The notes under the pieces were generated by a model, which was not told the origin of the DNA, did no database searches, and was given only the letters and a program-made list of their open reading frames with translations. The position numbers and the translations under genes are program-made. From Patescibacteria group bacterium (GTDB lineage Bacteria > Patescibacteriota > Microgenomatia > UM-FILTER-40-11), in assembly GCA_035530075.1 (NCBI GenBank), contig DATKVM010000004.1, positions 2,132 through 66,131 of the forward strand: a DNA stretch of 64,000 nucleotides, written 5' to 3'. Below are positions 10,723 through 37,137 of the stretch, in pieces. Numbering within the stretch: position 1 is the first letter of the stretch; the number at the start of each line of letters is the position of its first letter.

Positions 10723-10796
10723 TGAACTGTGGTGGACTCGAACCACCGACCTGTCCGATGTGAACGGACCGCTCTAACCAACTGAGCTAACAGTTC
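10723..10796 (-). tRNA. tRNA-Val (anticodon CAC)
   Basis: The minus-strand sequence GAACTGTTAGCTCAGTTGGTTAGAGCGGTCCGTTCACATCGGACAGGTCGGTGGTTCGAGTCCACCACAGTTCA folds into a cloverleaf. It has a 7-bp acceptor stem, D-arm GCTC/GAGC, anticodon stem GTCCG/CGGAC with loop TTCACAT, and T-arm GGTGG-TTCGAGT-CCACC. CCA is not encoded. Confidence 0.8.
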
Positions 10797-10947: not shown

Positions 10948-11529
10948 ATGGTGAACTTTTTCAAAAAAGTCGCTCAATTTTTTTTGGACACAATCCAGGC
11001 AATTGTCTTGGCTCTCTCGATTTTTATTATCGTTTATCTTTTTCTATTTCAACCGCACCAGGTCAAAGGCGGTTCGATGTACCCCAGCTTTCACAACGGT
11101 GAATTTCTGCTTACAAATAAGATTTCCTACCGTTTTGATCTTCCCCAAAGAGGAGATGTCATTGTTTTTAAGGCGCCGGAAAGTGAGCCGTGCGCGGAAA
11201 TTGAATGCGAATACATTAAAAGAATCATTGCCTTGCCGGGAGAGAGGGTTAAAGTAGAAAATGGCCAGATTTTTATTGATGAACGGCCACTGGATGAATC
11301 GGATTATCTTTCGCGGGAAGTAATAACGAGCGCGGGCTCTTTCTTAGGTGAAGGAACGGAAAGGGTTATTCCCGAAGGCTATTATCTGCCCTTGGGAGAC
11401 AACCGCGCTTATTCCCGGGACGGTCGTGAATTTGGACCGATTCCTCGAGAGTCAATCGTTGGCAAAGCCTGGCTAAGGTATTGGCCTTTGCCAAAAACCG
11501 GGTTGGTCAAACACGAAGACTACCCCTAG
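10948..11529 (+). CDS. lepB: Signal peptidase I
   Basis: The protein has an N-terminal TM and a catalytic Ser box (GGSMYPSF). The Lys box and GDNRAYSRDGREFGPIP match S26-family motifs. Confidence 0.85.
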   Translation: MVNFFKKVAQFFLDTIQAIVLALSIFIIVYLFLFQPHQVKGGSMYPSFHNGEFLLTNKISYRFDLPQRGDVIVFKAPESEPCAEIECEYIKRIIALPGERVKVENGQIFIDERPLDESDYLSREVITSAGSFLGEGTERVIPEGYYLPLGDNRAYSRDGREFGPIPRESIVGKAWLRYWPLPKTGLVKHEDYP

Positions 11530-11531
11530 AA

Positions 11532-12374
11532 CTACTGACAGATACTTTTGTAAACTTTTTGGAGTTTCTCTTCCGTTTCTTCTAAACTGCCGAAAAGAGA
11601 AATGGTAATTCTGGTCTCAACGCGAGAACGCGTTAATTTCACTCCGGTCTTCTTCTCTTGACGGTCAATAGAAACAAGGGCTCTTTCAATATCATCCCGA
11701 ATCTGATCAATCGTTTCGTTGACAATCCGCTGAATTTTTTGTTTGGGAGCAATTCCTTGAGTTTGCTGCTTCATCCGCCGAGCCAAATCTTCCGCTCTTC
11801 TCACCGAACTCGACTCTCGTAAAACAATCTTGTAAGCCTCAATCATTAACCTCGGGTCAGAAATCGCGGCCAGCGCCCGGGCATGACCCTCAGTTATTAG
11901 TCCCGAAAGAATCCCGTCTTTAATCGCGTCCGGCAGGGATAAAAGCCGTAACGAATTAGAAACATAAGCTTGACTTTTGCCCACTCGGCGAGCAATTTCC
12001 GCCGTGGAAAGATTAAATTCGTCAATTAACCGCTGGAAAGCCCTAGCCCGCTCCAACGGGTTTAAATCCACCCGCTGAACATTCTCCACAATGGCCATTT
12101 CCAGCATACCCCGCGGGGTGGTTTCTTTAATAATTGCGGGAATCGTCTTTAAACCAACAATTTTCGCCGATCGCCAGCGCCTCTCCCCAGCAATAATTTG
12201 AAAACCGGCAGGAGTTTTAGCTACCACTAGCGGCTCCAAGATGCCATGCTCGCGAACCGAATCAACTAAATCAACCAGACTTTCGGGAGTAATAACACCG
12301 CGGGGCTGAAGAGGGTTTGATTGGAGCTCGTCAATCAAAAGCTGGACTATCACCATATTGCTGTCATCAGACAT
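11532..12374 (-). CDS. parB: ParB/Spo0J-family partition protein
   Basis: A ParB N-terminal box (GILEPLVV...IIAGERRWRSAK) is followed by an HTH region. Confidence 0.85.
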   Translation of the reverse strand: MSDDSNMVIVQLLIDELQSNPLQPRGVITPESLVDLVDSVREHGILEPLVVAKTPAGFQIIAGERRWRSAKIVGLKTIPAIIKETTPRGMLEMAIVENVQRVDLNPLERARAFQRLIDEFNLSTAEIARRVGKSQAYVSNSLRLLSLPDAIKDGILSGLITEGHARALAAISDPRLMIEAYKIVLRESSSVRRAEDLARRMKQQTQGIAPKQKIQRIVNETIDQIRDDIERALVSIDRQEKKTGVKLTRSRVETRITISLFGSLEETEEKLQKVYKSICQ

Positions 12375-14113: not shown

Positions 14114-14160
14114 TACCTAAAAGTATCACAAGTATCAAAAGTATCACAAGTATTAAAAGC

Positions 14161-17295: not shown

Positions 17296-18432
17296 CTAGT
17301 GTTGTCTCCCTAATCTCAAGAAGGCGGGGACTTCGTACTCTTCACCCATTTCATCCAAGGGGGCCTCGGTATCCGTCTCGCCGTTTCCTCCGGGAGTTGA
17401 CGTTTTAGTCGTTGGAGAAGCGGTAGAAAAGACTTTCGCCGCCGGTGGCTGAACCATTCGCCGTAAATTCAGCTTTGATTCATCGAAACCGGTAGCGATG
17501 ACCGAAACTTTAATTTGGTCAACCATTTTTTGATCAATACTCGCGCCAAAGATAATATTAGCATCAGCATCCGCATTCTCCGTAATAATTTTCGAGGCCT
17601 CTTCTACCTCCGCCATCGTTAAATCCGAGCCACCAGTAATGGTGAAAAGAATCCCCCGGGCGCCGTTAATGGAAACTTCCAGCAGGGGAGAAGCAATCGC
17701 ATTTCGAGCCCCGGCTTGGGCCCGATTTTCACCTATGCCAACTCCAATACCCATAAAGGCACTCCCGGCGTCTTTCATAATCGATTTAATATCAGCAAAA
17801 TCTCGGTTAATCAGCCCGGGGAGAGTAATGATGTCCGAAATTCCATGGACCCCTTGAGCCAAAACCGAATCTACCGTCTTAAAGGCTTCGACTAAGGTAA
17901 TTTTGCGGTCAATTGAATCGAGTAGTTTCTGATTGGGAATAACAATCAAGGCATCGACCTTGTCTTTCAATTTGACAATCCCCTCCTCCGCCGCTACCAT
18001 TCGCCGTGTTCCCTCAAATAAAAAGGGTTTCGTCACAACCGCAATTGTCAGAGCCCCTTGTTCCTTGGCGATTTCGGCAATAATCGGGGATGCTCCCGTC
18101 CCTGTTCCGCCCCCCATCCCGGCGGTGATAAAAACCATATCCGTGTCGGCCAACATCTCCTTAATTTTTTCCCGAGATTCTTCGGCTGATTGGCTTCCAA
18201 TCTCCGGATTACCACCAACTCCCAAACCACGAGTCAAATTCTCTCCAATTTGGAGTTTAATCCCCGCCTGATTAGCTAAAAGTGCCTGAGCGTCAGTATT
18301 GATGGCGACAAAATCTACCCCCGCAATTAAGTCCTCGAACACCATGGTATTAATCGCATTACTACCACCGCCACCAATTCCTAAAACTTTAATTTTGGCA
18401 AAACGGGCAACATCAGGTTTAACTAAAGCCAT
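17296..18432 (-). CDS. ftsZ: Cell division GTPase FtsZ
   Basis: The GGGTGTG tubulin signature, the T7 loop and a C-terminal tail are present. Confidence 0.95.
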   Translation of the reverse strand: MALVKPDVARFAKIKVLGIGGGGSNAINTMVFEDLIAGVDFVAINTDAQALLANQAGIKLQIGENLTRGLGVGGNPEIGSQSAEESREKIKEMLADTDMVFITAGMGGGTGTGASPIIAEIAKEQGALTIAVVTKPFLFEGTRRMVAAEEGIVKLKDKVDALIVIPNQKLLDSIDRKITLVEAFKTVDSVLAQGVHGISDIITLPGLINRDFADIKSIMKDAGSAFMGIGVGIGENRAQAGARNAIASPLLEVSINGARGILFTITGGSDLTMAEVEEASKIITENADADANIIFGASIDQKMVDQIKVSVIATGFDESKLNLRRMVQPPAAKVFSTASPTTKTSTPGGNGETDTEAPLDEMGEEYEVPAFLRLGRQH

Positions 18433-18554: not shown

Positions 18555-19919
18555 TTAAGGCAAAAAGGACTTGACAAAATTGCCAACCTTTCCAGCCAAA
18601 CCTCTAATGGGGATCTTCCGACCGATTTCTCCCAATTTAGAGAAACCGTTGACGGAAGAAAGGGAATCGTCTTTCTTGCTCCCGTAAAGAAGTAAACCGA
18701 TGACGGAAGCAAAAGAAGGATCCATAATATCATCGATAAGCCCGCTAACTTGGCCCGGCATCCCCACTCTCACCGGCAAAGATAAGCTCTTGCGACAAGT
18801 ATCGGTTGCCCCAATTGTCATTGCCCCTCCCCCAGCCAAAACAATGCCTGAAGGAGTTAAACCGGCAAAACCACTTCTCTGAATCTCAGCCGCCACCATA
18901 CCAAAAATCTCATTCAACCGCGGCTTAATAATTCCTTCTACCAGAGTTTTTTTGGACACTTTTTTGGTTTCTTCATAAATTCCCAATCGATTTAAATCAA
19001 TCTCATCCTCTTTTCTCTCTCCTTCTTTTTTCTCCTCACTTTTTTTATTTTTTTCTTCGCTCTTTTCCCCTTTGTCTGTCTCTTCTTCCAATAACCGTCC
19101 CTCAAAAATGGGAACTTTTTCTTTTACTTTATCCGAAAGAGCCACTTTTAACCTTTCCGCTCCTTCTATAGAAAGCCGCAAACCAATCGCTAAATCATTA
19201 GTAACATTTCTAGCCCCAATTGGCAGGACGGCCGTATAAGCCGGGGCGCCGTCCAGGAAAACCACCACACTGGTTGTCCCTCCACCGATATCTACTAAAA
19301 CTACTCCCAATTCTTTTTCCGTTTCCGTTAGCACTGTCTCCGCCGCCGCCACGCCGGAAAAAACCAGCCCTTCAATGTTAGCTCCCACTTCAGAAACGCA
19401 TTTAGTCAAATTTTTAATCGCGGTATTGGAACCAGTTATAATGTGAGTCTCTACTTCCAACCGCACTCCGCTCATCCCGACTGGGTCCGCCACTCCCTCT
19501 TGAGAATCAACCGCATAAGTGCGAGGAATAACATGAAGAATTTCCCGCGAAGAGGGCAAAGAAATCGCTCGCGCCGCTTCAATTACCCGTCGAACATCCT
19601 CAGGAGTAATTTCTCCCTGAGGCTCGGCCACCGCGACAATCCCATGAGAATTTTGCGAGGCAATATGAGCTCCACCAACAGAAACCAGGGTTTTAGATAA
19701 GGAAAAACCGGCCATTCTCTCCGCCGCTTCGACGCTTTTGACAATTGTATCCGCCGCCTCCTCAATATTAACGATTTGGCCCTTTCTCACCCCTAAAGAA
19801 GGAATAGAAGAAGCCCCAACAACATTAATTCTTTCTCTGCTTTCGTCAACTTGCCCAATTAAAGTGGCAATTTTCGTGCTGCCAACATCAATGGCAGCAA
19901 TAATTCTGCTTCGATTCAT
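18555..19919 (-). CDS. ftsA: Cell division protein FtsA, with a K/E-rich low-complexity insertion
   Basis: The protein has an actin-like ATPase fold with a DVGS phosphate-1 motif (IAAIDVGSTKI) and a VDIGGGTT phosphate-2 motif. The inserted segment reads EEETDKGEKSEEKNKKSEEKKEGERKEDE. Confidence 0.85.
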   Translation of the reverse strand: MNRSRIIAAIDVGSTKIATLIGQVDESRERINVVGASSIPSLGVRKGQIVNIEEAADTIVKSVEAAERMAGFSLSKTLVSVGGAHIASQNSHGIVAVAEPQGEITPEDVRRVIEAARAISLPSSREILHVIPRTYAVDSQEGVADPVGMSGVRLEVETHIITGSNTAIKNLTKCVSEVGANIEGLVFSGVAAAETVLTETEKELGVVLVDIGGGTTSVVVFLDGAPAYTAVLPIGARNVTNDLAIGLRLSIEGAERLKVALSDKVKEKVPIFEGRLLEEETDKGEKSEEKNKKSEEKKEGERKEDEIDLNRLGIYEETKKVSKKTLVEGIIKPRLNEIFGMVAAEIQRSGFAGLTPSGIVLAGGGAMTIGATDTCRKSLSLPVRVGMPGQVSGLIDDIMDPSFASVIGLLLYGSKKDDSLSSVNGFSKLGEIGRKIPIRGLAGKVGNFVKSFLP

Positions 19920-19964
19920 CTTTCCTTAGCTTATCTTTTAGGTTATTTTATCTCTAATAAAGAA

Positions 19965-20025
19965 TTTATCCTTAATAAAGGATTTATCCTTATAAAGGAT
20001 TTTACCCAGATAAAGAAACGGTTGT
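19965..20025. repeat. Three tandem roughly 18-bp direct repeats in the ftsA / amrBA divergent promoter region
   Basis: The units are TAATAAAGAATTTATCCT, TAATAAAGGATTTATCCT and TATAAAGGATTTTACCC. Confidence 0.5.
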
Positions 20026-20070
20026 AAAGTAGTTTCTAAGAAAAACATCAAGATAGGTTCAGTGTAGCAT

Positions 20071-21618
20071 ATGAAGAAAAGAAAAACACTTTTTTACTTT
20101 TGCTTGCTTTTATGGTTCAGCCTGCTACTATCTTACTTAGTGATTAGCAAAATCAAAAAGAAACCAGCTCCGACAGCCGAAATCTTTACCCGAACCCCCA
20201 CCTTTGCCGGCTCTTTTTATCCGGTTGAACCCCAAAACTTAAAAACCAAAATTACTTCTCTTCTTAACCAAGCTCCTCGGTTGGAGAGAAAAGGCAAACT
20301 GCAGATTTTAATCGTTCCCCACGCCGGCCTTGATTATTCCGGGCCGATTGCCGCCGCCGGTTTTAAGCAATTAGGGGGAACTGACTATCAACGGGTAATT
20401 CTTTTGGGCACCAGTCACCGGGCTTTTTTTGAAGGAATCGCGGTTTTCGACCAAGGCGCCTGGGAAACGCCATTGAAAAAAACAATAATCGATGAAGATC
20501 TGGCTAAAAAATTGGTATCTCCCAACGAAGGCATCGTGGCTAACCCTCCCGTCCATCGCGAGGAACATTCTCTGGAAGTCCAATTGCCGTTTTTACAGAC
20601 CGTTCTTCCCCAAGCTAAAATTGTTCCCATTCTTATTGGCCAGCCAACAAAGGAGACTCTTGCCTCTCTGGCTCAAAAAATCGCCGATAACCTCGATTCC
20701 TTCACTCTCCTCCTAATTAGCTCCGACCTTTCTCATTATCCGCCTTATAAAGTTGCCAATCAGGTAGATAAAAAAACCACTCAAGCCGTTGTTTCCGGCC
20801 AAGCGGAGAATTTAGAAAAGAGCTTAACCGAAGCTGAAAGCCAACATTATCCTGGCTTGGATACCTGCGCTTGCGGTTATCAGGCAATTTTAGTTGCCCT
20901 CCAAGCAGCGGAGAAGTTAAATAATTTCAATTTTGAGGAAATAAAATACGCTAATTCGGGTGACATTACCGGCGAGAAAGAACAAGTTGTCGGTTACGCC
21001 GCAATTGGCGGCTGGCGGCGAAATAATCCCTCCAGCTTAACGCTTGACCAGAAAGCCCAGGAAGAAGCCCTTGCTCTGGCCCGCCAAACTCTCAAGGCTC
21101 ATCTTTCCGGTTTACCTCTCCGAACCCCGCCAAAGGCGGGGGAAGGGGGACCCAGATCCCCCATTCTTCTCAAACCACTCGGAGCCTTCGTTACTCTGAA
21201 AAAAAACGGCGAGCTGCGCGGTTGTATTGGTGAATTTGAACCGAAAGTGCCGCTTTGGCAAGTAATTCAAAAGATGAGTATCGCGGCGGCGACCGAAGAC
21301 CCACGCTTCCCTAAAGTCACCGCCGAGGAACTCCCCGACATTGAAATCGAGATTTCCGTGATGACTCCCCGGAAGAAAATTGATAATTGGGAAAAAATAA
21401 GATTGGGGGTTGACGGTGTAATGATGCAATACGGCAATCGAGGAGGCACTTTCCTTCCCCAAGTGGCGACAGAAACCGGCTGGAGTTTAGAAGAATTCTT
21501 AAGCCAACTTTGCTTCCAAAAAGCCGGTCTGCCACCCCATTGTTATAAAAGCCCCCAAACAAATCTTTATACTTTCGAGGTTCAAATTCTTAAAGAAAGA
21601 TCAGAGATCATCCCCTAA
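20071..21618 (+). CDS. Fusion protein: AmmeMemoRadiSam system protein B (Memo-like) N-terminal and AMMECR1 domain (AmrA) C-terminal, with an N-terminal TM anchor
   Basis: AGSFYP...ILIVPHAGLDYSG matches the Memo/AmrB family. The C-terminal half (GAFVTLKKNGELRGCIGEFEP) matches the AMMECR1 core. A hydrophobic helix is at residues 7-27. Confidence 0.75.
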   Translation: MKKRKTLFYFCLLLWFSLLLSYLVISKIKKKPAPTAEIFTRTPTFAGSFYPVEPQNLKTKITSLLNQAPRLERKGKLQILIVPHAGLDYSGPIAAAGFKQLGGTDYQRVILLGTSHRAFFEGIAVFDQGAWETPLKKTIIDEDLAKKLVSPNEGIVANPPVHREEHSLEVQLPFLQTVLPQAKIVPILIGQPTKETLASLAQKIADNLDSFTLLLISSDLSHYPPYKVANQVDKKTTQAVVSGQAENLEKSLTEAESQHYPGLDTCACGYQAILVALQAAEKLNNFNFEEIKYANSGDITGEKEQVVGYAAIGGWRRNNPSSLTLDQKAQEEALALARQTLKAHLSGLPLRTPPKAGEGGPRSPILLKPLGAFVTLKKNGELRGCIGEFEPKVPLWQVIQKMSIAAATEDPRFPKVTAEELPDIEIEISVMTPRKKIDNWEKIRLGVDGVMMQYGNRGGTFLPQVATETGWSLEEFLSQLCFQKAGLPPHCYKSPQTNLYTFEVQILKERSEIIP

Positions 21619-21671
21619 TTTGATTTATACTTCCAGGTGGGCTATATTCGGTATTAATTGTCACTTTCGCA

Positions 21672-22793
21672 ATGATTGGAGACATTGAGCGCCGTTTAGG
21701 CAGAGACTCCTTTACCAGTCAACGAAAAAGATTCGATTTCCAGGAGGGAAACCTCTCACCAGGAATCCGTCTAGGCAGTTATTGGGCTGAAGCTCAGGCG
21801 GTTCTTGGAGCCTTAAAAGAAATAACCCCACCATCACCCGGATTTGCCAACGCCATTATTCTTCAAAACAGTGGACCAGGACCTGATTCCCTTCAAATTT
21901 ATACTCGACGGGCAGTGGACCGAAATGGCCAGACAATCCCAAACAAAATCTTGATTGGTATTGTTCATGGCCTTTCTCCTTTTGTAGATGTTGTAGTTCT
22001 TGAGGGTGAAGAATCCAGCCTTCAAAACGCCAGCGGGTATTGGCAACATCATCAGTCTGGAATTGAATATCCTATTCAAAACATCCAAGTGATTAAAGCC
22101 GGCCGATTAGAAGAAAAAGTGAGTGGTAAAAAACCAAGGGGAAGACTCCTTGTTCGCGAAGCAGCCTGGGAAAGATGGGAAGAATTAAAAACTGTTTATG
22201 ATTGGGGGGCAAAAGTCAGTCGTATCTCGCTTTTAATTCCAGCGCTGACTGTCGACCAAAACAGATTAAGAGAACAAAGTTTTTTTGACTTCTTGGAACA
22301 ATCACTGCGACGGTCAATTCTCAAAATGTCCATGGAACACGAAGAATCTTGGCGAATCGCCAGATCTCTGATTAACACCTGTGATACTGATGGATTCGTC
22401 CATAGTTCAAGAGAAGGACCGAAACCAGGAACAATCGAAATATATGGGGCAATCGACGAACGAAGATTACTTGGCAAAGTGGGAATTGTCCGAATCGTGT
22501 CTCCCCAACAAGTGCATCATTTTATTATTAGATGCCGGCTTGAGCAAGAAAACAAAGGGCCCGAATGGCAACCATTCGGTACATCAAGATACTGGTGTTC
22601 AATTGGCTTTTGGGACGGAGGTTGGATTATGTCTAGATACAAGGGGCGGGGACCAAGCCCTTCCAGAGAATGGTACACCGCCGGCCAAGGGTGGCTAAGA
22701 TGGTGCTACACCAAAAAGATTGAAGGATTAAATATCCGTTTAGACTCATTTCAGCTCCCCCCTATTCCTCCCCACATTCTCCGCCAAAGCTAA
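21672..22793 (+). CDS. Hypothetical protein, no recognisable domain, with a Trp-rich C-terminus
   Basis: A 373-aa ORF whose codon usage and GC content differ from the flanking core genes. It overlaps the following gene in convergent orientation. Confidence 0.45.
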   Translation: MIGDIERRLGRDSFTSQRKRFDFQEGNLSPGIRLGSYWAEAQAVLGALKEITPPSPGFANAIILQNSGPGPDSLQIYTRRAVDRNGQTIPNKILIGIVHGLSPFVDVVVLEGEESSLQNASGYWQHHQSGIEYPIQNIQVIKAGRLEEKVSGKKPRGRLLVREAAWERWEELKTVYDWGAKVSRISLLIPALTVDQNRLREQSFFDFLEQSLRRSILKMSMEHEESWRIARSLINTCDTDGFVHSSREGPKPGTIEIYGAIDERRLLGKVGIVRIVSPQQVHHFIIRCRLEQENKGPEWQPFGTSRYWCSIGFWDGGWIMSRYKGRGPSPSREWYTAGQGWLRWCYTKKIEGLNIRLDSFQLPPIPPHILRQS

Positions 22794-23867
22794 GGCGCTC
22801 TTATTGACTGATAATAAAAAGTAAGGATCTAAGGCTCCTAAATATTGAGGTTGACCCTCAACCTCCACGGCCGCTCCATAAACGCTAAGCGGCATTTTTA
22901 GATTATCATTAAACCACTTTTCGACCATTGTTTCATAACCCACCGCTTTGAGGATGTGTCTAAAGATATCTTGTTCTGTCCACCCAGACATGGCGACTAA
23001 CTCCTCTTCCTTTAAATCTCTCAAAGTGTCATTTGCTCCCGTAACTAAATTTCTATATGTTTTGACAATGTCTTGAATAACTAGCGGATCTCGGACACAA
23101 TAACCGACTCGAGGAAAGCAAGAAATAATAAACGAGGGTTTCGTTCTGGCAATTTTAGTGATAATATCCTTCCAAGGAAGATATGTCTCCACCACATCCA
23201 GTGGTCCGGGGTTGGGGAAAACCACCAAATCAGGCTGCACCTTCTCCCAAAGCACTTCTCTTAAATCAGCTTCCCTCGGAGTTACCGTTGAAACGTTGAA
23301 AGCCAAAAGCTCTTTAATTTTCTCAATTTTTCCCGGATCTCTCGGGTCGACAACAAATAAATCGATGGGAACTTGAGGGAAGTTTCGATTAAAAAATCCC
23401 AGCAGGCCAGCGACACCCTGGCCGTCTTCGCCACCCGCAACTCCTACTGTCAATCTCCCGCTCTCTTTCGAATGAGTCGGAATCCTGGCGATTCCAGCGA
23501 CTCTGAAAAGCTCGGTCAGCCCCTGTTCCCACCGACTCCTAGCCGCCTGGGCAATTTTATCCTGATTGGACTCAGCTACCTCACCGGCTTCCATTTCCCG
23601 GCCGTCCTGAGCCTTAACCTTCATTTCATCAATTTCCGGAAATCTTTTCATTTCCAAATATTCCGGAAAAACAGGGTCGCTCGCGGGTCTGCCTGAATTT
23701 ACCTTAGTGAGAGCAGAACACACCCTGGCGCTTGAGTCAGGAGAAAGTAAAATATAATCAGGAGAACGGGGGAGAGATTCACCATTCCAGTTCAAAGCTT
23801 TTATCTCCACTGCTCCCGGCCATATCCGGGCTGGCTCATCTGGAGTCACAATCTCTGCCTCAGTCAT
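22746..23867 (-). CDS. Hypothetical protein; a Gly-rich LTVGVAGGEDGQGVAGLLG motif is faintly CofD/YvcK-like
   Basis: A 373-aa ORF. The glycine-rich loop followed by DLFVVDPRD suggests a nucleotide or phosphate-binding fold, but I could not make a confident family assignment. Confidence 0.45.
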   Translation of the reverse strand: MTEAEIVTPDEPARIWPGAVEIKALNWNGESLPRSPDYILLSPDSSARVCSALTKVNSGRPASDPVFPEYLEMKRFPEIDEMKVKAQDGREMEAGEVAESNQDKIAQAARSRWEQGLTELFRVAGIARIPTHSKESGRLTVGVAGGEDGQGVAGLLGFFNRNFPQVPIDLFVVDPRDPGKIEKIKELLAFNVSTVTPREADLREVLWEKVQPDLVVFPNPGPLDVVETYLPWKDIITKIARTKPSFIISCFPRVGYCVRDPLVIQDIVKTYRNLVTGANDTLRDLKEEELVAMSGWTEQDIFRHILKAVGYETMVEKWFNDNLKMPLSVYGAAVEVEGQPQYLGALDPYFLLSVNKSALALAENVGRNRGELK

Positions 23868-24306
23868 TGCTTTAATTCAAAATTGTATCCTTGCTTTGAA
23901 GATATTTTCTCTTCTGCTAAAAGTCAAGCAAAAGCTCCGAAGCCTTGACATTCTTTTAACATAAAGGTCTTATCCTTACACATTTGTTACACATTGAATG
24001 CATCTCAGTTTGAGCCCTTCGATTAGCCGAAGTTAACTCAAATTCAGGACTTTTAAAACTCAAGCACGATAAACTTCCGAGGGCTTTTAACCCTCGGTAT
24101 TGATTTTAAGTTTTCAAGAGTTGGCAGGACTCTCAAACTTGTTCTTCCTTTAGGCTCGGAAGTTTGAAAGAGATTGGCATTCATTCTGCCAACTCTTATA
24201 AAAGACGCGGCCGTCGGCTTGGAGGTAATCTCTTTGCTTCCAGCCCGACGGTCTGCGTCTCTAAGGTGCGGATGTACCACGCGGGCCGGACAAAACAATA
24301 GGAGGT

Positions 24307-24999
24307 TTGGCAATGAGAGGCAAGAAGCTGCTTCTCGCCATCACCCTGGTGGCGTTTCTGAATGCCACCTTGATTACCCCCCTGGTGCTGGCCGACAGAC
24401 GGACGGACCCGGTGGAGCTTTTTCAGAACGACACCTTACCGGATGAATCCGTCGACCAGCAACCTCTCGGAACCGGCCCATTGCCGCCCCCCTACGTCTC
24501 CGGCCTATATCCACACCCTTTTTTCCCGAAATACTACCCCCAAGTCACCTGGGAGCAGGTCGGGACGTTTCTCTCAAGGGCCAAGCCCGTCACCATTCCG
24601 TTGTTCCTCTTGTGGATGACGTTTGGCCTTCAATCATCCGACAATCCCGACCTCCACCGACACACCCTGGAGGGAGAACGGGCAGACCATCGTCAGGACC
24701 TATATAGGAGACTGCCGAACAGACGACCGGATGACTGTTTAGCCAGGGATGCCGATTGGTACGACGGCAAATGGCACAGTAATGCCGTCCTACTAATCTA
24801 CTATATCCCAGGCTTCAAGTCAGGGAACCGGAGCGGCGGCATACAGTTTGTCTACAATAAAGACAATCCCGATCGCTCCACCTGCCTGGCCGGCGTCAAA
24901 CCACCGCCTCACTTCCACTGCAGTCGCGAAGATCAGCAGAGCTGGTGTCCGGAGGCAGAGGCATTCCTGATGGAGGTACCTCCAACAATACTATCCTGA
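24307..24999 (+). CDS. Hypothetical secreted protein encoded in a GC-rich (about 58%) segment
   Basis: A strong SD (AGGAGG) sits 7 nt upstream of the ATG. The protein has a signal peptide (MAMRGKKLLLAITLVAFLNATLITPLVLA) and is Pro/Trp/Cys-containing with no known domain. Its composition differs sharply from the rest of the window. Confidence 0.5.
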   Translation: MAMRGKKLLLAITLVAFLNATLITPLVLADRRTDPVELFQNDTLPDESVDQQPLGTGPLPPPYVSGLYPHPFFPKYYPQVTWEQVGTFLSRAKPVTIPLFLLWMTFGLQSSDNPDLHRHTLEGERADHRQDLYRRLPNRRPDDCLARDADWYDGKWHSNAVLLIYYIPGFKSGNRSGGIQFVYNKDNPDRSTCLAGVKPPPHFHCSREDQQSWCPEAEAFLMEVPPTILS

Positions 25000-25035
25000 C
25001 GCGTTCTAGAGGCATCTTAGTCGTGCTTGAGGCCA

Positions 25036-25081
25036 AGGAGTGCACTCCTATTCCCATTCTCTGCAGGAGTGCACTCCCCTC
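25036..25081. repeat. Two copies of the perfect palindrome GGAGTGCACTCC in the convergent gap
   Basis: AGGAGTGCACTCCT lies at 25036-25049 and GGAGTGCACTCC at 25068-25079. Both sit between the converging ends of the 24307..24999 and 25094..26098 genes. Confidence 0.6.
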
Positions 25082-25093
25082 GTTCTTTCTCAA

Positions 25094-26098
25094 TTAGAGC
25101 TTGGCGCCAACTTCCTTAAAAGCCTCAAAGAGCCCCGGAAGAAAATCGGTAAGGCTTTCTCGACCAGCAATTTTTTCTATTTCAGTCGTTGGATTAAGGC
25201 AATCTTTACTTCTAGCAATTTCCTCTCCTGCCGCTAATATTTCATCCCATTTTTGCAAACCGTCTTCAACCATATACAGAAAAAGCAAGTCCATTGCGTT
25301 CATCATTACTGCTCTCTCGTTAGGCGAAGAGTGTCTCTCGTCAATATAATCTCTCAAAGTAGGGCCAAAGGTTTCTCCTACCACGCCTCCGCCCCTAACT
25401 CCCCCGACCCAACCCATTCCTCCCAGCCAACTGAAATTATCGGTCCAAACGGGATGGTTTTCAAAAAAGTTCACCATGCTCAATTGAGAAACCCTTCGAC
25501 CGGCTACTCTTATTCCCATGCTGACTATTTCCTCTATCGCAATACCGATCGCTGCCGTATAGTCAGAATCATTAGCAACATAGATTCTAAGATCCCGTGC
25601 CAAACCCCTTCTCTCTACCCGCCTGGCAATTAAACCAGCCTTTTCTTGACTAAACTTATTATCTTCCTGCAACCAGTGACGGTAATTTTCCTCCAATCGC
25701 TGATATTCAGGCATCTTTCTAACACTAGGATCTTCTTGAAAGTCGATCCTTTCCGGATTAAGTTCTGGATTTCTGACAAAGCGGTAAATAACATCCCAAC
25801 CAATCCTTACCACCAGAGTTTTTTGGGCCATTTCTTTTGCCACCGAAGGATGTTGCCCACGATACCCCGACAGTGTCCCCCAAAAAATTAACGAACCGGC
25901 TGGTTTAAGCAAAATAATTAAATCAGGATTCCCTTCGATTAATTTTCGAAAGTTTCCTTTTAGCTCTTCTTGAAGCTCTGGTGGAATTTTTACCTCAACT
26001 GATGATTCTCTCGCCATTCGTTCCAGCGGCTGAATAGGAGCCTCTTCCGACCCAAGAGAAAAAGACGGGGCGCGTGCCTTATAATCAAGCTCGGTCAT
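25094..26098 (-). CDS. Hypothetical protein, no recognisable domain
   Basis: A 334-aa ORF, the last gene of the anomalous block, lying immediately downstream of murG. Confidence 0.45.
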   Translation of the reverse strand: MTELDYKARAPSFSLGSEEAPIQPLERMARESSVEVKIPPELQEELKGNFRKLIEGNPDLIILLKPAGSLIFWGTLSGYRGQHPSVAKEMAQKTLVVRIGWDVIYRFVRNPELNPERIDFQEDPSVRKMPEYQRLEENYRHWLQEDNKFSQEKAGLIARRVERRGLARDLRIYVANDSDYTAAIGIAIEEIVSMGIRVAGRRVSQLSMVNFFENHPVWTDNFSWLGGMGWVGGVRGGGVVGETFGPTLRDYIDERHSSPNERAVMMNAMDLLFLYMVEDGLQKWDEILAAGEEIARSKDCLNPTTEIEKIAGRESLTDFLPGLFEAFKEVGAKL

Positions 26099-26128
26099 CT
26101 TGCCCTAATTATAAGGCATACATATTGG

Positions 26129-27220
26129 TTACATCAGTTCTTCGACTTCAAAGAGGATTCTTGCAGTGGCGTCAACCTCGATCTTAGGAGAAGCGGGGGA
26201 AACCTTCTTGCTTGACAAATTTTTCTCAAATTCCAAAATTGTTTCCCAAAGCTTACCTGCCTCCAAATCCTTTTGAGGCAAAATTATCCCCAAACCGGCC
26301 GCCACCAGCACTTTGGCATTTTCTTCTTGCTCATTGCCGCTCGCCCAAGGAATGGGGATTAAAATCGCCGGCTTTTTCAAAGCCAAAAGCTCATAAACCG
26401 TATGGGCCCCGGCTCGGGAAATGATAAAATCCGCTGTTCGGAAAACTGAGCCAATTTCGTCTTCAAAAAAATATTCTTTCACCAGATAATCTTCTCCCTT
26501 GTCGCCTAAGTTTTCCTTAATCTCCCTCGCTTTTTTTATATCATTAAAAAGGGTGGTCGAGCCGCATTGATGGATAACATTAAATCTTTCCAACAACTGA
26601 GGCAGAATGGCAAAAACAGCCTCGTTAATTACGTGGGCCCCCTGTTTGCCGCCAGTAATATAAATCGTTTTTTTGGCATTTTGGAAAAGTTTTTTACCCT
26701 TTTTTAAAATCTCCCTTCTTATTGGCAAACCAGTCACTACTACCTTTTCTTGGGGAAAATATTTACTCGAAGAAGGGTAGGTAATAAAAACCTTTTTAGC
26801 AATTTTGGCAATCATCTTATTCGCCCAACCGGAAACGGTTGTTTGCTCATGAGTCACCACTGGAATACCAAGAAGCCAGCCGGAATAAGCCACCGGCAGA
26901 GCCAAATAGCCACCGAAGGAAAAAATCAAATCCGGCTTAATTTTTTTGAGACCGACAAAACTTTGCCAAAAGCCCAAAGGAATTCGGAGTAGATTAGACC
27001 AAAATTGATAACGGGGCTGGAATTTACCGGCTTTGATTTCGGTGAAAGGAAAACCCTTTTGAGTTACTTCCAAATATTCGGCGCTAGGATTTTCATCGCC
27101 AATCATTGAATATTTATGACCAAACCAAAAAACCTGATGGCCTTTCTCCCGCAAACCCTCTGCCACTACCAAAGCGCTGTTATGATGACCCCCGCAAAAC
27201 ACTATTTTCTTTTGATACAT
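26129..27220 (-). CDS. murG: UDP-GlcNAc:undecaprenyl-PP-MurNAc-pentapeptide GlcNAc transferase
   Basis: The protein has the GT28 two-domain architecture, with N-terminal VFCGGHHNSAL and C-terminal ISRAGAHTVYELLALKKPAILIP motifs. It lies at the dcw-cluster position. Confidence 0.85.
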   Translation of the reverse strand: MYQKKIVFCGGHHNSALVVAEGLREKGHQVFWFGHKYSMIGDENPSAEYLEVTQKGFPFTEIKAGKFQPRYQFWSNLLRIPLGFWQSFVGLKKIKPDLIFSFGGYLALPVAYSGWLLGIPVVTHEQTTVSGWANKMIAKIAKKVFITYPSSSKYFPQEKVVVTGLPIRREILKKGKKLFQNAKKTIYITGGKQGAHVINEAVFAILPQLLERFNVIHQCGSTTLFNDIKKAREIKENLGDKGEDYLVKEYFFEDEIGSVFRTADFIISRAGAHTVYELLALKKPAILIPIPWASGNEQEENAKVLVAAGLGIILPQKDLEAGKLWETILEFEKNLSSKKVSPASPKIEVDATARILFEVEELM

Positions 27221-27241
27221 TTGATGCTTTTGATACTTTTA

Positions 27242-28330
27242 CTACCTTTTGCTGTTCTTAGAAATATTGTACACAATTCCCATCCCGCTTAAGGAAACCA
27301 AAAGTGAGGAACCGCCATAGGAAATAAATGGCAAAGGCACACCAGTCAAAGGCACTAAAGCCACCATTGCTCCCAGATTAACAATAGCCTGAAATCCTAA
27401 AGAAAAAATAATTCCTGCCACAAGCAGTTGAGCAAATCGGTCTTTCAAATAAATCGCCAGCCTCATCCCCCGTAAAACCAATATTAAAAACAAAAAAACT
27501 AAGCTCCCAGCTCCTAAAAATCCAAACTCTTCAGCGATTACGGCAAAAATCGAATCGGTGGTCACCTCCGGCAAAAATAGAAATTTCTGGCGCGACTGGC
27601 CTAATCCTCGGCCAAAAATTCCCCCACTACCCAAGGCAATCAAGACTTGACGAATATGATAAGAAGCGTCCTGAGCATCCCAGGAAGAGTTTAAAAAACT
27701 AAGCAGTCTCTGTCGACGATAAGGGGAGAACCAAATTAAAATAGGACCCACAATAGCAATTGCTACTCCTAAGCTCAGTACTTCTTTCCAAGGTGCGCCA
27801 GCAATAAAATAAAGGCCAAAAGCAGTGGCGGCAATAATTGTGGCTGTCCCTAAATCAGGCTCCAAGAGTAGCAAAGCCAAAGATAAGCCTACCACGGCGA
27901 CAAAAACCGAGAAACTCCTTTTTTTTTCAAAAAAAGTGGCTAAATAAATAACTAAAGACAGCTTGATTAATTCTCCTGGTTGAAAACCAAGAGGTCCAAT
28001 TTGCAACCAGCGCCGACCGCCATAAATTTCTCTACCAATACCAGGAATTAAAACCGCTAATAAAAAAGCAAAACTGAGCAATAAAAAAGGAAGGGCAATT
28101 TTTTTGAGCAAACGATAATCAAGAAAAGCGAAAAAGAAAAACAAAACCAAACCCAAGACTAGCCAAATTGACTGATGTTTCAAATAATAAAACTTATCGC
28201 CAAAATCAGCCAAAGCCGTCACTGAAGAAGCATCAAATATCATAAACAGGCCGAAAATGCTTAGGATTAAGGCGAAGAAAAAAAACCAACGGTCACCAAT
28301 TTTAAGCGATAGGCTTCGGGGTTTCAGCAT
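27242..28330 (-). CDS. ftsW: SEDS-family lipid II flippase/polymerase FtsW
   Basis: A 10-TM SEDS protein between the ATP-grasp gene and murG in the dcw cluster. Confidence 0.8.
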   Translation of the reverse strand: MLKPRSLSLKIGDRWFFFFALILSIFGLFMIFDASSVTALADFGDKFYYLKHQSIWLVLGLVLFFFFAFLDYRLLKKIALPFLLLSFAFLLAVLIPGIGREIYGGRRWLQIGPLGFQPGELIKLSLVIYLATFFEKKRSFSVFVAVVGLSLALLLLEPDLGTATIIAATAFGLYFIAGAPWKEVLSLGVAIAIVGPILIWFSPYRRQRLLSFLNSSWDAQDASYHIRQVLIALGSGGIFGRGLGQSRQKFLFLPEVTTDSIFAVIAEEFGFLGAGSLVFLFLILVLRGMRLAIYLKDRFAQLLVAGIIFSLGFQAIVNLGAMVALVPLTGVPLPFISYGGSSLLVSLSGMGIVYNISKNSKR

Positions 28331-29667
28331 TTTTCCAGTTTAACCTCATTCCTAATTTTTTCCGCTAATTGAACATACTCCTTCCGCAAAGCTCCTTTTT
28401 CATCGCTCACCTTCTCCAGGGTATCGAAACGCGCCAACTCAATTTCCGGATTCACTTGACGACCTTCAGCCGCCACCGTTAACCAAAGTTCTTCCCGGTT
28501 TTTAGTGGAAAGAAAATAGCTTTCTTTAATAAATTCCAGCGGCAGTCGGTAAAGACCGCTCGGCAAGCTCTGCCGGACTTTTTGGGGCAAACTAGTGGTA
28601 TTACGCAGAACCACTTCGCTTCCGACCACCGAAGGAGGTTCCCATTCATCGATTTCAGCCTTGAAAGGTAAGAAAGCCAGTAAATGATAGGCCAAAAGGG
28701 GCAAAACACCAACCCCTAGTTCCAATTTAGTGTAAAAAGGAACTGAAGCAGTTAAACGAGCATTGTTCTCCGAAACAAAAATCTCTCCGTTCTCTTCGTC
28801 AATTAAGAAATCAAGCCCAAAAAAACCACGGTAACCTTCCTTGGCCATTAATCGGCCGACTTTCCGCGTGATTGCCTCTATCTTACTTTCCTGCTTAGTT
28901 ATCCCGGCTACCGGCCATTGGCGACCTCCAGTACCGCCGGTCGCGGCGGTTAAGAGAGGATGAGATTTTACTTGCAACGCCGGCCGGCTAATTAATATTT
29001 GGTTATCCCAAATTACCGCGTTATTAAGAAACGTCCTTCCTTTGACAAAACGACCGACTTTTACCCGCAACGAACCATAATCTTTCTTCAACCTTTCCAA
29101 TTCTTCCGGGCTCCTAACAAAAAAAGTAGAGCTGCCTGCCCAACCCCGGCCGAACTGTAAGACCAGAATCTCTCCGTACAAGCGAGCCATTTCATTAAAC
29201 GAGAGGCCGGCCAGTTCGGCAATTTCACCCGGCGCAGTCCGAATCCCCACTTTTTGGCAAAATTCAAAAAAGGCAACCTTGTCCTCAAAGCGGCGGTTTA
29301 ACTCCACCGGATTGCCCAGAAGGTTAAAATGGTGCTCTTGAGCTAAAACTTCAATCTTTTTTTGCGGCTTAAAAAACAAAATTTGAGGAGTTCTCCCTCC
29401 GGCTTTCTCTTTAATGAATGTCAAGACTGCTGGCTGAGATAAAATATTACCGCTCACTCGGGCAAGAACATTTTTCTTACCCACGCTCCTTTCAAGACAA
29501 AAAACTGAAACTCCATTCTTTTGCAAAATATCTACCAAAGGATGATCGTCCAGGCAAACAATATGATAGTTGGGCAAAAGATTTTCCAAACCGATTCCCT
29601 GCCCTACATCATTCGTGACATAAAAAATCGGCTGGGTTAGATTGTGCAAATAATCAATTTCTACCAT
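28324..29667 (-). CDS. ATP-grasp domain ligase of unknown specificity, at the position where murD normally sits
   Basis: The C-terminal ATP-grasp core is GYRGFFGLDFLIDEENGEIFVSENNARLTAS, preceded by Gly-rich ATP-binding loops. The N-terminal roughly 150 aa are unassigned. Confidence 0.65.
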   Translation of the reverse strand: MVEIDYLHNLTQPIFYVTNDVGQGIGLENLLPNYHIVCLDDHPLVDILQKNGVSVFCLERSVGKKNVLARVSGNILSQPAVLTFIKEKAGGRTPQILFFKPQKKIEVLAQEHHFNLLGNPVELNRRFEDKVAFFEFCQKVGIRTAPGEIAELAGLSFNEMARLYGEILVLQFGRGWAGSSTFFVRSPEELERLKKDYGSLRVKVGRFVKGRTFLNNAVIWDNQILISRPALQVKSHPLLTAATGGTGGRQWPVAGITKQESKIEAITRKVGRLMAKEGYRGFFGLDFLIDEENGEIFVSENNARLTASVPFYTKLELGVGVLPLLAYHLLAFLPFKAEIDEWEPPSVVGSEVVLRNTTSLPQKVRQSLPSGLYRLPLEFIKESYFLSTKNREELWLTVAAEGRQVNPEIELARFDTLEKVSDEKGALRKEYVQLAEKIRNEVKLEKC

Positions 29668-30851: not shown

Positions 30852-31610
30852 TCAAGCCCAAATTTTCAGCCTTTTAAGGCCGTCGCCCTGAGAAGAAAGA
30901 AGCATTTGTTTGTAACTATCACCGTTAGGAAGAGTTTCCTCCCATTCTTGATCAGCTAATCCTCCTTCCAGATTGGTAATCTTAATTAGGCCACTATGAA
31001 CCCCTGGTACAGCCGTCTTTTCTGATGAGTGGACATACTCTATTTCCCTCACTTTCCCCAAATCCCTTACCACTTTTATGACGACAGCGATATGTTTTCC
31101 CCCATGTAAACGGATAGTGTCGCCCACTCGAATCTCATCTATCTTTTTCACCGGAATAGACAAATTCTTACCGGTCAGCTTATCGGCACTGACCTGGCGT
31201 TGGGCTAAAGTGCCCGGGAGACGGGGAATAAGGTCAGCTATCCCCCTCCCGCCTCTTCCTCTATCCAAAGCGTCCAGCATCCAAAAAACAAAGCCGGAGC
31301 AATCAACACCAATTTTTTTTCTTTTCATAAAAGCCAAAATTTCTTCTTCTGACATCTGATTAAGATTAACTGCCGCTTTTTTGGCTGCTGACTCTGTTGC
31401 TTCTACGATCTGTTCTGGTTTTCCTTTACCCCCAAACGGCCCAGTGATAGCCAATGAAAGCCTATTGCGCCAATAAGGGCAGCTAATTTCCTTCCCGCCA
31501 ATAGGCAAGTGAGTATATTGATAAAACAGACTCTCTAAAGCCTTCGAATTTTGCACTTTGCACTCTTGTCCTGAGCTTTGTCGAAGGATTGCACTTTGCA
31601 CTTTCGTCAT
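30852..31610 (-). CDS. NlpC/P60 (C40) family cell-wall peptidase
   Basis: The catalytic Cys motif (GVDCSGFVFW) and a downstream His (HIAVVIK) are present. The start was moved to the Met at 31608-31610, forming an ATGA overlap with the mraY stop. The N-terminus is encoded by repeat element copy A. Confidence 0.6.
   Translation of the reverse strand: MTKVQSAILRQSSGQECKVQNSKALESLFYQYTHLPIGGKEISCPYWRNRLSLAITGPFGGKGKPEQIVEATESAAKKAAVNLNQMSEEEILAFMKRKKIGVDCSGFVFWMLDALDRGRGGRGIADLIPRLPGTLAQRQVSADKLTGKNLSIPVKKIDEIRVGDTIRLHGGKHIAVVIKVVRDLGKVREIEYVHSSEKTAVPGVHSGLIKITNLEGGLADQEWEETLPNGDSYKQMLLSSQGDGLKRLKIWA
31551..31604. repeat. Intragenic repeat element, copy A (core CTTGTCCTGAGCTTTGTCGAAGGAT flanked by TGCACTTTGCACT tandems)
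   Basis: An exact 25-nt core is shared with copies at 36846 and 63353. Here it encodes the N-terminus MTKVQSAILRQSSGQECKVQ of the NlpC/P60 gene. Confidence 0.75.
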
Positions 31611-36195: not shown

Positions 36196-37137
36196 TTAAA
36201 ATTCTCCTACTTTTACAATTTCTTCTTTTAAGTCAACGCCAAACTTTTCTTTAACCTTAGCCCTGGCTAAATCCATCAGAGCCACAACATCAGCCGCTTT
36301 TGCCTGGCCCACATTGACAATGAAATTAGCGTGCTTTTCGGAAATTTTTGCCCCGCCAATTTGGGCACCTTTAAGCCCGCATTGTTCAATCATCTCGCCC
36401 GCCGACTGCGGTTTGGGATTAACAAAGACGCTCCCGGCCGAAGGCTCTTTCGGCTGAGCGCTTCTTTTTTCCAAATTTTCTTGGATTTTTTTCTTAATTT
36501 CCTCTGGCTCCCCCCGCGACAGTTCAAACTCTGCCGTCAAAACGATTTCGCCACCGCCCCTCTTAAAACGGCTGGTTCGATAATCAAACTGACATTCGTC
36601 TTTCGTTAGCCAAGAAATCTTGCCATCTAGAAAAAGAACTTTAACTCTTAAAACTTTGTCGCCAATATTCTGTTGCCACGCTCCGCCGTTCCCCCTTATC
36701 GCTCCTCCAATCGTCCCGGGAATTCCTGCCATAAATTCCAATCCGGCGACGGAATTTTTAACTAGTTCGTTTAATAAAACACTTATCGGCACCCCTGCCT
36801 CCACCGTTACTAAATATTTTCCGTTCAAACTTTGAACTTTGAACTCTTGTCCTGAGCTTTGTCGAAGGATTGAATTTCGAATTTTTATTACGATTCCCCT
36901 AAACCCCTTATCTCCTACGAGCAAATTAGAGCCACCACCAAGAATTAAGTAGACCACTCCTGCCTCTCTGGCAACCTTGACTGCTTTAATTAAATCCTCC
37001 TCCGTTTCTGCCACCAAAAACAAATCCGCCAGTCCACCGATTTTAAAAGTCGTATGGCTAGCCAAAGGCTCACCCACCTTCACCTTGCCTTCTCCAAGCA
37101 AATCAATTATTTTTTGATATCTTTCTTCCATCTTCAC
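36196..37137 (-). CDS. murB: UDP-N-acetylenolpyruvoylglucosamine reductase
   Basis: An FAD-binding domain (FKIGGLADLFL, GGGSNLL) followed by a MurB C-terminal domain. It contains repeat element copy B in frame (ILRQSSGQEFKVQSL). Confidence 0.85.
   Translation of the reverse strand: MKMEERYQKIIDLLGEGKVKVGEPLASHTTFKIGGLADLFLVAETEEDLIKAVKVAREAGVVYLILGGGSNLLVGDKGFRGIVIKIRNSILRQSSGQEFKVQSLNGKYLVTVEAGVPISVLLNELVKNSVAGLEFMAGIPGTIGGAIRGNGGAWQQNIGDKVLRVKVLFLDGKISWLTKDECQFDYRTSRFKRGGGEIVLTAEFELSRGEPEEIKKKIQENLEKRSAQPKEPSAGSVFVNPKPQSAGEMIEQCGLKGAQIGGAKISEKHANFIVNVGQAKAADVVALMDLARAKVKEKFGVDLKEEIVKVGEF
36827..36886. repeat. Intragenic repeat element, copy B
   Basis: AAACTTTGAACTTTGAACT, then the 25-nt core, then TGAATTTCGAATTTTT, all inside the murB coding sequence. 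Confidence 0.75.

Follow-up and report, generated by a model that had tools for sequence, protein, structure and literature searches.

Between the conserved amrBA and murG genes of a Patescibacteria group bacterium lie four genes whose products have no family assignment, and the question that this locus raises is whether they are an imported cassette or belong to the division and cell wall (dcw) gene cluster around them. The window, that is the whole stretch of DNA analyzed, is 64,000 nucleotides long (assembly GCA_035530075.1, contig DATKVM010000004.1, positions 2,132 to 66,131) and comes from a low-GC genome, with 43.5% GC overall. Our preferred reading, to which we give a probability of roughly 0.55, is that a clade-specific variable slot of the dcw cluster holds two independent modules here, A (ORF1 and ORF2) and B (ORF3). 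The slot would occupy the position where other relatives carry one gene, for FtsQ or a LysM protein, and ORF4 would be a gene restricted to this lineage at the tail of the ftsW-murG operon.

The gene order is ileS, ftsZ, ftsA, a Memo+AMMECR1 fusion gene, ORF1, ORF2, ORF3, ORF4, murG and ftsW, with these coordinates in the window:

17296-18432, minus strand: ftsZ
18555-19919, minus strand: ftsA
20071-21618, plus strand: Memo+AMMECR1 (AmrB-AmrA) fusion gene, product membrane-anchored
21672-22793, plus strand: ORF1, 373 aa, two-domain protein
22746-23867, minus strand: ORF2, 373 aa (367 by gene callers), predicted class I S-adenosylmethionine (SAM)-dependent methyltransferase fold
24307/24313-24999, plus strand: ORF3, 230 aa from 24307 or 228 aa from 24313, signal-peptide protein
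25094-26098, minus strand: ORF4, 334 aa, native composition
26129-27220, minus strand: murG

A preliminary description of the locus had counted four ORFs (373, 373, 230 and 334 aa) in two convergent pairs between the amrBA fusion and murG, all lacking recognizable domains. We confirmed both the arrangement, in which ORF1 and ORF2 overlap by 48 nt at their 3′ ends, and the absence of matches in Pfam, NCBIfam, PHROG, PADLOC and PDB sequences. PDB sequence searches with ORF2, ORF3 and ORF4 singly and with ORF1 and ORF2 family profiles gave noise only, and the PADLOC models (anti-phage defense, toxin-antitoxin) had no match to ORF1-4 at E ≤ 1. We found nothing specific to this locus in the literature. 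Word-indexed protein searches with ORF2, ORF3 and ORF4 returned essentially the query only, and an orphan status taken from them is untrustworthy; the ORF2 result is a false negative, since ORF2 homologs of 42–44% identity exist.

Conservation and loss of the two modules

The convergent ORF1/ORF2 pair was found at the same locus in at least five related Patescibacteria genomes, at 30–47% identity: L020 (GCA_023473205.1), L021, L022, L023 and L029/L030 (GCA_050942565.1). The ORF1 homologs are 32–36% identical to that of the window, reaching 47% over the C-terminal domain in L023, and the ORF2 homologs are 30–44% identical (E 4e-85 with L020). The ORF1 homolog comes after ftsA, with amrBA in between except in L022 and sometimes with extra genes, such as one encoding a DUF2130 protein; in every complete locus the convergent ORF2-family gene follows. 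The 3′ ends of the pair overlap in four of five relatives (not L023). Flanking MurG is 66–69% identical (L020, L022, L023) and AmrBA 55–72% (L020, L021, L023). Even in the distant L025, where the ORF1-family member is secreted, the convergent ORF2-family gene is present. Because the pair has been kept at this locus in the relatives, it was inherited and not recently imported; module A is old in the clade.

The DUF2130 gene, 65–80% identical among four relatives, lies directly upstream of the ORF1 homolog (L020 6756-7898, L022 2906-4024, L023 6551-7669, L029 6740-7873) and is absent from the window.

Strain-level comparison separates the two halves of the block. L004, from a sister sample of the window's source, is 99.6% identical to the window up to 21554 and 98.8% identical from 23975, and lacks ORF1 and ORF2: positions 21555-23974 are replaced by 111 nt, so that amrBA leads straight into the ORF3 leader. 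L024, a Joint Genome Institute (JGI) sequence of the same species, has a frameshifting deletion of 167 nt in ORF2. L020 is without ORF3 and ORF4, and there ORF2 abuts murG. From the loss of ORF1/ORF2 in L004 and the absence of ORF3/ORF4 in L020 we conclude that these are independent modules, each of which can be lost. What had been described as one block at the amrBA-murG junction is, across relatives, a conserved ORF1/ORF2 part (five genomes) and a lineage-restricted ORF3/ORF4 part.

The nearest named relative by MurG is a Candidatus Shapirobacteria metagenome-assembled genome (MAG), at 65% identity. Outside the clade (Shapirobacteria, WWE3 and other MAGs) the order is ftsW, murG, one gene, ftsA, ftsZ, and these loci show no match to amrBA or to ORF1-4. 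The single gene in the murG-ftsA gap is FtsQ-like in L007 and LysM/sortase-like in L006. A tblastn search of the window with the L007 FtsQ, which is a weak test, found no homolog; Pfam found no POTRA or FtsQ domain in ORF1-4, and our scan showed no hydrophobic segment at the N-terminus of ORF1, ORF2 or ORF4. The gap protein of L006, a Shapirobacteria relative, is encoded at 11103-11807 and is Tat-signal-like, with LysM and a sub-threshold sortase domain, in place of FtsQ.

ORF3, its codon usage and its leader

ORF3 has the N-terminal signal-like sequence MRGKKLLLAITLVAFLNATLITPLVLA, and is surrounded by the following elements:

23945-23993, plus strand: promoter-like TTGACA (23945-23950), 17 nt, TCTTAT; then the tandem TTACACAT-N3-TTACACAT (23976-23993/4)
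24059-24073, plus strand: leader box CTCAAGCNCGAWAAA, in the window, L004, L021, L024 and the distant L025
24074-24197, plus strand: strain-variable insertion of ~124–129 nt with ATAAA flanks, in the window and L004, absent from L024 and L021
24203-24260, plus strand: conserved leader hairpin; inner stem GCUUGGAR…YUUCCAGCC conserved, outer stem covarying
24300-24305, plus strand: Shine-Dalgarno AGGAGG, 7 nt before the ORF3 ATG at 24313
25037-25077, no strand assigned: two copies of the 12-bp palindrome GGAGTGCACTCC, pairing into a 13-bp stem, with a U-rich tract after it

The signal-peptide protein behind a consensus AGGAGG that the preliminary description had noticed is thus borne out, the AGGAGG being read directly from the sequence. 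An ORF3 ortholog in L005 (Logan SRR22315508) is 80% identical in amino acids and 73.5% in nucleotides, with 47/25/106 differences at codon positions 1/2/3, dN/dS (ratio of nonsynonymous to synonymous rates) of ~0.07 and a synonymous difference (pS) of 0.69, which is saturated; this pattern shows purifying selection and is incompatible with a spurious ORF or a gene for RNA alone. Homologs were found in the window's own species and L005 only: IMG/VR gave no match, and a scan of JGI metagenomes with the ORF3 alignment gave the same species only.

In sister genomes the interval between ORF2 and murG contains other plus-strand genes for signal-peptide proteins (LysM353 in L021, g218 in L023, g297 in L030). 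None of them is detectably related to ORF3, apart from LysM353, which hhalign aligns to it marginally over 42 columns (E 1.6e-4, probability 50%). The L023 protein g218 had been considered as an ORF3 homolog and was rejected.

The GC-rich core proved to be a property of ORF3. The highest-GC 800 bp of the 64 kb are 24201-25000, at 56.8% against 43.5±3.1% (z about +4.2). ORF3 (24313-24999) has 56.4% GC and a third-position GC content (GC3) of 0.67, against 0.43±0.05 for 52 ORFs of the window; ORF1, ORF2 and ORF4 are native, with 0.38, 0.44 and 0.39, and the 439-bp intergenic region 23868-24306 has 42.1% GC. A sliding profile therefore upholds the GC peak reported earlier and confines it to the ORF3 region: 23880-25090, given as about 58% GC, measures 51.4%; the anomalous composition ascribed to all four genes applies to ORF3 and not to the other three; and the abrupt change in codon usage falls at the borders of ORF3 instead of those with amrBA and murG. 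The ORF3 bias is chiefly one of C over T at third positions, where C/(C+T) is 0.72 against 0.36±0.05 (maximum elsewhere 0.50), and the codons GGT, GCT, ACT, GTT and TCT are wholly unused. Strand bias was rejected as its cause, plus-strand genes being only slightly richer in third-position C (0.44–0.50, against 0.72).

Similar codon usage recurs in a particular set of genes. GC3 is 0.70 in the L005 ortholog of ORF3 and 0.63, 0.58 and 0.63 in the slot genes of L021 (LysM353), L023 (g218) and L030 (g297), whose neighbors have 0.29–0.50. Secreted ORF1-family members are also GC3-rich: 0.65 in L025 (methyltransferase partner 0.30), 0.57 in L026 (against 0.35), 0.46 in L027 (against 0.24) and 0.54 in L023; L151 is an exception, with 0.37 and neighbors at 0.31–0.37. 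A rough survey covered 269 ORFs in 20 loci of the Candidate Phyla Radiation (CPR), and eight of the ten largest GC3 excesses in it belonged to this class of slot and secreted genes. A general GC3 richness of secreted proteins in these genomes was rejected, as generic signal and membrane proteins have a mean excess of 0.016 (p 0.55). We read the GC-rich core as reflecting how a special class of genes for secreted proteins uses codons, rather than as the footprint of a four-gene island.

The regulatory region upstream of ORF3 recurs as well. TTGACW-N17-TATnAT followed by TTACAYAT-N3-TTACAYAT is found upstream of GC3-rich secreted genes in L004, L021, L023 and L030. Allowing up to two mismatches, the tandem repeat has three matches in the window, against 0.24 expected, and the sole exact one is upstream of ORF3; among 150 loci exact tandem copies are confined to these leaders. 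OmpR-type regulators bind tandem direct repeats about 11 bp apart, as in the TTACAYAT-N3-TTACAYAT spacing. On the minus strand at 7988-9692 the window encodes a probable histidine kinase and then an OmpR-type response regulator. One two-mismatch copy of the tandem, ATACATATTGGTTACATC (26118-26135), is in the 30-nt spacer between murG and ORF4 and may be due to chance.

The leader box CTCAAGCNCGAWAAA has no match in 1.1 Mb of control loci. The insertion that follows it holds a terminator-like hairpin (24077-24097) and then the T-rich TATTGATTTT, and could be an attenuator; a deletion makes the L024 leader 129 nt shorter. It is unique in the window, and was rejected as a repeated mobile element. 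The 341-nt spacer as a whole folds far better than shuffled sequences (z -6.5), and the conserved hairpin is predicted to fold at -41.6 kcal/mol in the window (z -8.2), -41.8 in L021 (z -8.2) and -23 in L030 (z -6.5). The inner stem is kept in L021 and L030, while the outer stem of L030 has a wholly different sequence that is fully paired over 9 bp. When the window and L021 were compared by blastn, ftsZ, ftsA and amrBA were 73–76% identical, ORF1 and ORF2 went undetected, and the leader was the sole segment between amrBA and murG to be detected (82% over 125 nt). Rfam 15 had nothing at gathering score in the whole window, nor at E ≤ 5 in 21500-26300. A scan of IMG/VR with the hairpin pattern gave more than 120 chance matches, and these loci served only as a negative control. 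The leader and operator motifs are new as far as these libraries show, and they may have a regulatory role. Downstream, in the gap where ORF3 and ORF4 converge, the GGAGTGCACTCC stem probably terminates ORF3 transcription.

In module B, ORF3 would have a promoter of its own, followed by the operator-like tandem repeat, a long structured leader containing the conserved hairpin, a consensus ribosome-binding site and a terminator. ORF3 would be one occupant of the slot, sister genomes holding different secreted proteins under the same regulatory region. Its coding part would be exchangeable, and its product may be an extracellular or cell-surface protein under tight regulation.

A lesser but real possibility is that ORF3 alone, with or without its leader, was acquired or repeatedly exchanged from a GC-richer pool (a host, phage or mobile element), with the slot as a landing site. 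Only the codon usage of ORF3 looks foreign, its third-position composition being far outside the range of the genome, so an imported origin comes into question for this gene alone. Slot occupants, all of them GC3-rich, differ between sister genomes under a conserved regulatory region; indels between strains lie around the slot; and the ORF3 bias is stronger than that of ribosomal-protein genes. However, no donor was found among 5.8 billion proteins, JGI metagenomes and IMG/VR, only homologs of the same clade, and no mobility genes or repeats were found. Moreover, GC3 of the ORF3 orthologs is still 0.67–0.70 with synonymous sites saturated, a divergence over which passive amelioration would erase a bias; this persistence, together with the missing donor, weakens a passive foreign origin. 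GC3 of the C-terminal domain of the ORF1 family is also raised in the secreted L023 form (0.50, against 0.35–0.41). Gene conversion would fit poorly because the anomaly ends at the borders of ORF3.

Predicted products of ORF1, ORF2 and ORF4

An AlphaFold2 model of ORF2, built with six family members, has a predicted local distance difference test (pLDDT) score of 62.5, a predicted template modeling (pTM) score of 0.67 and a core at 70–87. It shows Rossmann-like beta-alpha alternation with the seven strands of that alpha/beta fold, and its structural neighbors are class I SAM methyltransferases: BCDIN3D (6l8u), MM_2633 (3dtn) and NodS (3ofj). Motif I is LTVGVAGGEDGQG (aa 139-151, nt 23415-23453), and the Gly-rich stretch VGVAGGEDGQGVAGLLG (aa 141-157) comes after strand beta1, at the position of the SAM-binding motif I. 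D174 lies at the end of beta2 and fits motif II, D201 corresponds to motif III, and motif IV is D213-LVVFPNPGP; we infer these assignments from position in the model and from the alignment. In the alignment, GVAG(G/C)EDGxG, D174 (VDPR) and D201 are kept in five of six family members, and D213 is invariant. The Gly-rich motif had earlier been likened to the CofD/YvcK loop; this resemblance was not sustained, PF01933 being absent at E ≤ 1 from six members and the structural neighbors being methyltransferases. Methyltransferase hidden Markov models (HMMs) of Pfam did not match the six members at E ≤ 1, and there was no NCBIfam match. ORF2 is predicted from its modeled fold to be a class I SAM-dependent methyltransferase, with a corresponding activity probable, and its subfamily is new as far as these libraries show.

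ORF1 has a beta-rich N-terminal domain (~aa 35-215) and an alpha+beta C-terminal domain (~aa 218-367; model pLDDT 80) with the invariant motif S220-x-x-H223-x-E225-S226 (nt 22329-22349). An exhaustive HMMER search defined a family of 11 proteins, of which the C-terminal domain is the conserved part. The N-termini vary: a cytoplasmic-looking domain in the window, a signal peptide and LysM in the syntenic L023 ortholog, and elsewhere a 689-aa secreted form and a lipoprotein-like form. An RtcB-family gene adjoins the ORF1-family locus in L026, L027 and L030, scoring 45.9, 76.5 and 34.3 bits against PF01139 (cut-off 27). The C-terminal domain is a new domain family as far as these libraries show, and gene association suggests that it forms a functional unit with the methyltransferase and sometimes RtcB.

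The L030 homolog of ORF1 (1253-2395, GCA_050942565.1) is broken into frames of 250 and 75 aa. A frameshift could account for the break, or the gene may be a pseudogene; either would add to the signs that module A decays in some lineages.

Module A, as we would have it, is a convergent pair that descends vertically within the clade, evolves fast and can be lost individually, with ORF2 as a methyltransferase and ORF1 as its obligate partner bearing the invariant Ser/His/Glu/Ser C-terminal domain. ORF2 may act with or on ORF1, or on a shared macromolecular target. The neighborhood, with RtcB ligase in three loci and LysM fusions in others, would point to RNA-end or cell-envelope chemistry.

It is unlikely that ORF1 and ORF2, with RtcB in some genomes, are a toxin/immunity or RNA damage-and-repair module, where the His/Glu domain of ORF1 would be a nuclease-like effector, and the methyltransferase and RtcB would protect or repair the RNA of the producer. 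Such a module could explain one conserved C-terminal domain on very different N-termini, the tightly linked partner gene, the adjoining RtcB-family genes above the Pfam threshold and the dispensability of the pair between strains. Yet no toxin or immunity family of PADLOC or Pfam matched, the partner is large and convergent instead of following on the same strand, the pair keeps a stable position within a housekeeping cluster, and the ORF1 model has no structural match to known RNases; the nuclease reading of the His/Glu motif is a motif-level analogy from general knowledge.

ORF4 follows murG on the minus strand after a 30-nt spacer, and the two genes are probably transcribed together. The sole ORF4 ortholog found, in L005, is 63% identical over 151 aa, with a nonsynonymous difference (pN) of 0.235 and pS of 0.677, indicating purifying selection. 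By Pfam, ORF4 is not RtcB-like. We rejected it as a relative of the ORF2 family or of a 289-aa L005 protein, and the similarity of its C-terminus to an L026 protein with a phosphoribosyltransferase motif (pairwise E 5e-4) is too weak to use.

Weighing of the locus and comparison with known systems

Several points weigh against a variable slot with two modules as we have drawn it. Any biochemical function given to the four proteins is putative. The ORF2 model is of only moderate confidence (pLDDT 62.5), and motif IV varies across the family (FPNPGP, FPAPGP, FPRLW), so some members could be inactive. The ORF1 model found no convincing match among solved and viral structures, known RNases included, and its fold is without an informative neighbor. 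L021 is nearest to the window by AmrBA (72%), yet ORF2 is nearest in L020 and L023 (42–44%, against 32% in L021); this discordance hints that module A has been exchanged within the clade and is not strictly vertical. The leader elements come from three to six lineages with few independent covariations. For the ORF3 GC3 bias, import is still a candidate cause: the ribosomal-protein genes L1 and L11 of L151, the sole CPR locus having them, have C/(C+T) of 0.41–0.43, and being so much less biased they make expression-driven selection an uncomfortable explanation.

A recent horizontal acquisition of all four genes as one cassette, as first proposed, is very improbable. More distant relatives (Shapirobacteria, WWE3 and others) lack the block and all four proteins are without family assignment, but the GC3 of ORF1, ORF2 and ORF4 is native, synteny of ORF1 and ORF2 extends to five related genomes, the two halves of the block occur independently of each other, and island hallmarks are missing (no integrase, flanking repeats or mobility domains; the sole tRNA is at 10722-10796). 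Of that proposal, the variability of the locus stands; acquisition fails for ORF1 and ORF2, which are conserved in place and native in composition, and is conceivable for ORF3 alone. The idea that the GC-rich core is a structured non-coding RNA, with ORF3 a spurious frame, is barely credible: structured RNAs are GC-rich in low-GC genomes, the predicted fold of the ORF3 region is somewhat more stable than those of 20 shuffled versions (z -3.5) and the leader has strong secondary structure, but the codon-position pattern, dN/dS and excess of amino acid over nucleotide identity given above, the consensus ribosome-binding site with signal peptide, and the lack of any Rfam family at E ≤ 5 all speak for a protein.

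If the variable-slot reading is right, the locus is worth attention for its methyltransferase/partner pair, its S-x-x-H-x-E-S domain family, and its secreted genes with shared motifs and C-ending codon bias. Unassigned genes are abundant in CPR genomes; a conserved leader, secreted proteins and a persistent codon anomaly recurring together inside a division cluster are unusual. CPR bacteria probably live attached to other cells, which makes regulated secreted or wall-binding proteins beside division genes reasonable candidates for surface or host interaction. The leader motifs also offer a handle for finding the rest of the regulon in complete genomes. A bolder proposal, which we consider doubtful, is an exchangeable secreted-protein cassette system (shared promoter, operator, leader box and hairpin) coupled with an effector-protection or RNA-repair module of ORF1, methyltransferase and RtcB; if it were true, the extracellular proteins of the cassettes, some of them LysM peptidoglycan-binding, could serve contact with a cell wall, either the bacterium's own or that of a host cell.

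Some neighboring features were also noted. The Memo+AMMECR1 fusion has a hydrophobic anchor, MKKRKTLFYFCLLLWFSLLLSYLV, in its N-terminal part, and its L021 and L029 homologs also start with a hydrophobic segment; the fusion gene adjoins ftsA in most loci of the clade and is absent from the murG-ftsA gap outside it. The dcw cluster also encodes a conserved 447-aa protein (28324-29667, minus strand), its gene standing between ftsW and a PALP-family gene, with homologs in L006, L020, L022 and L023; no Pfam match is on record for it, and a weak ATP-grasp_3 match appears only in the L023 homolog. It is an unusual dcw component of the clade, and a LysW-type zinc-ribbon mini-gene comes after the PALP-family gene. 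Tandem 9-nt units, CTTTTGATA / AAAGTATCA, occur in three places and both orientations (27208-27249, 14118-14159, 55090-55114), the first spanning the ftsW-murG junction and the murG start codon. A 57-nt intergenic sequence, resembling a small repeated element or a regulatory site, has three copies, 86–100% identical (31547-31603, 36828-36884, 63335-63391), with a central segment CTCTTGTCCTGAGCTTTGTCGAAGGATTG between repeated AACTTTGAACTT units, and a related fragment at 51732-51761. Finally, 56275-56447 and 61266-61438 form a 173-nt direct repeat of 73% identity, 5 kb apart, possibly from paralogous genes.

No known system matches the locus as a whole; its ingredients (a methyltransferase, hypothetical partners, a variable slot, a leader hairpin) are of familiar kinds. 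With genomic islands it shares the atypical codon usage of ORF3, strain-level presence and absence, and lineage-restricted content; it differs in having no integrase, tRNA target or flanking direct repeats, in the native composition of three of the four genes, and in the synteny of half the block across the clade, only ORF3 and ORF4 being absent from the same locus in close relatives. Polymorphic toxins and Pnkp/Hen1- or RtcB-type RNA repair, an analogy from general knowledge, likewise have a domain on variable N-terminal modules, a linked partner gene, a methyltransferase and an RtcB-family ligase (here in three loci), whereas this locus shows no toxin, immunity, Hen1 or Pnkp domain, an atypical orientation and partner size, and a stable place in a housekeeping cluster.

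Compared with class I methyltransferases, ORF2 has a G-x-E-D-G-x-G loop instead of G-x-G-x-G, an N-terminal extension of ~130 aa and a motif IV that varies within the family; the family is always convergent with an ORF1-family gene and escapes the Pfam and NCBIfam HMMs. Like ompA-type 5′ hairpins and attenuators, as generally known, the ORF3 leader is long, with a stable conserved hairpin before a strong ribosome-binding site and a strain-variable terminator-like hairpin; unlike them, its hairpin has no Rfam family and no obvious sequestration of the ribosome-binding site. The LysM domain of cell-wall-binding proteins is found in the L023 ortholog of ORF1, in the slot protein of L021 and in the murG-ftsA gap protein of L006, while ORF1 and ORF3 of the window are both without it.

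With the canonical dcw order (…ftsW-murG-…-ftsQ-ftsA-ftsZ) the window agrees in the order and strand of ftsZ, ftsA, murG and ftsW; its murG-ftsA gap, however, is 6.2 kb (19920-26128), against 0.8–0.9 kb with one gene outside the clade. The label of imported cassette gives way to a testable picture, in which the division cluster of this clade would have swapped the FtsQ position for a variable slot.

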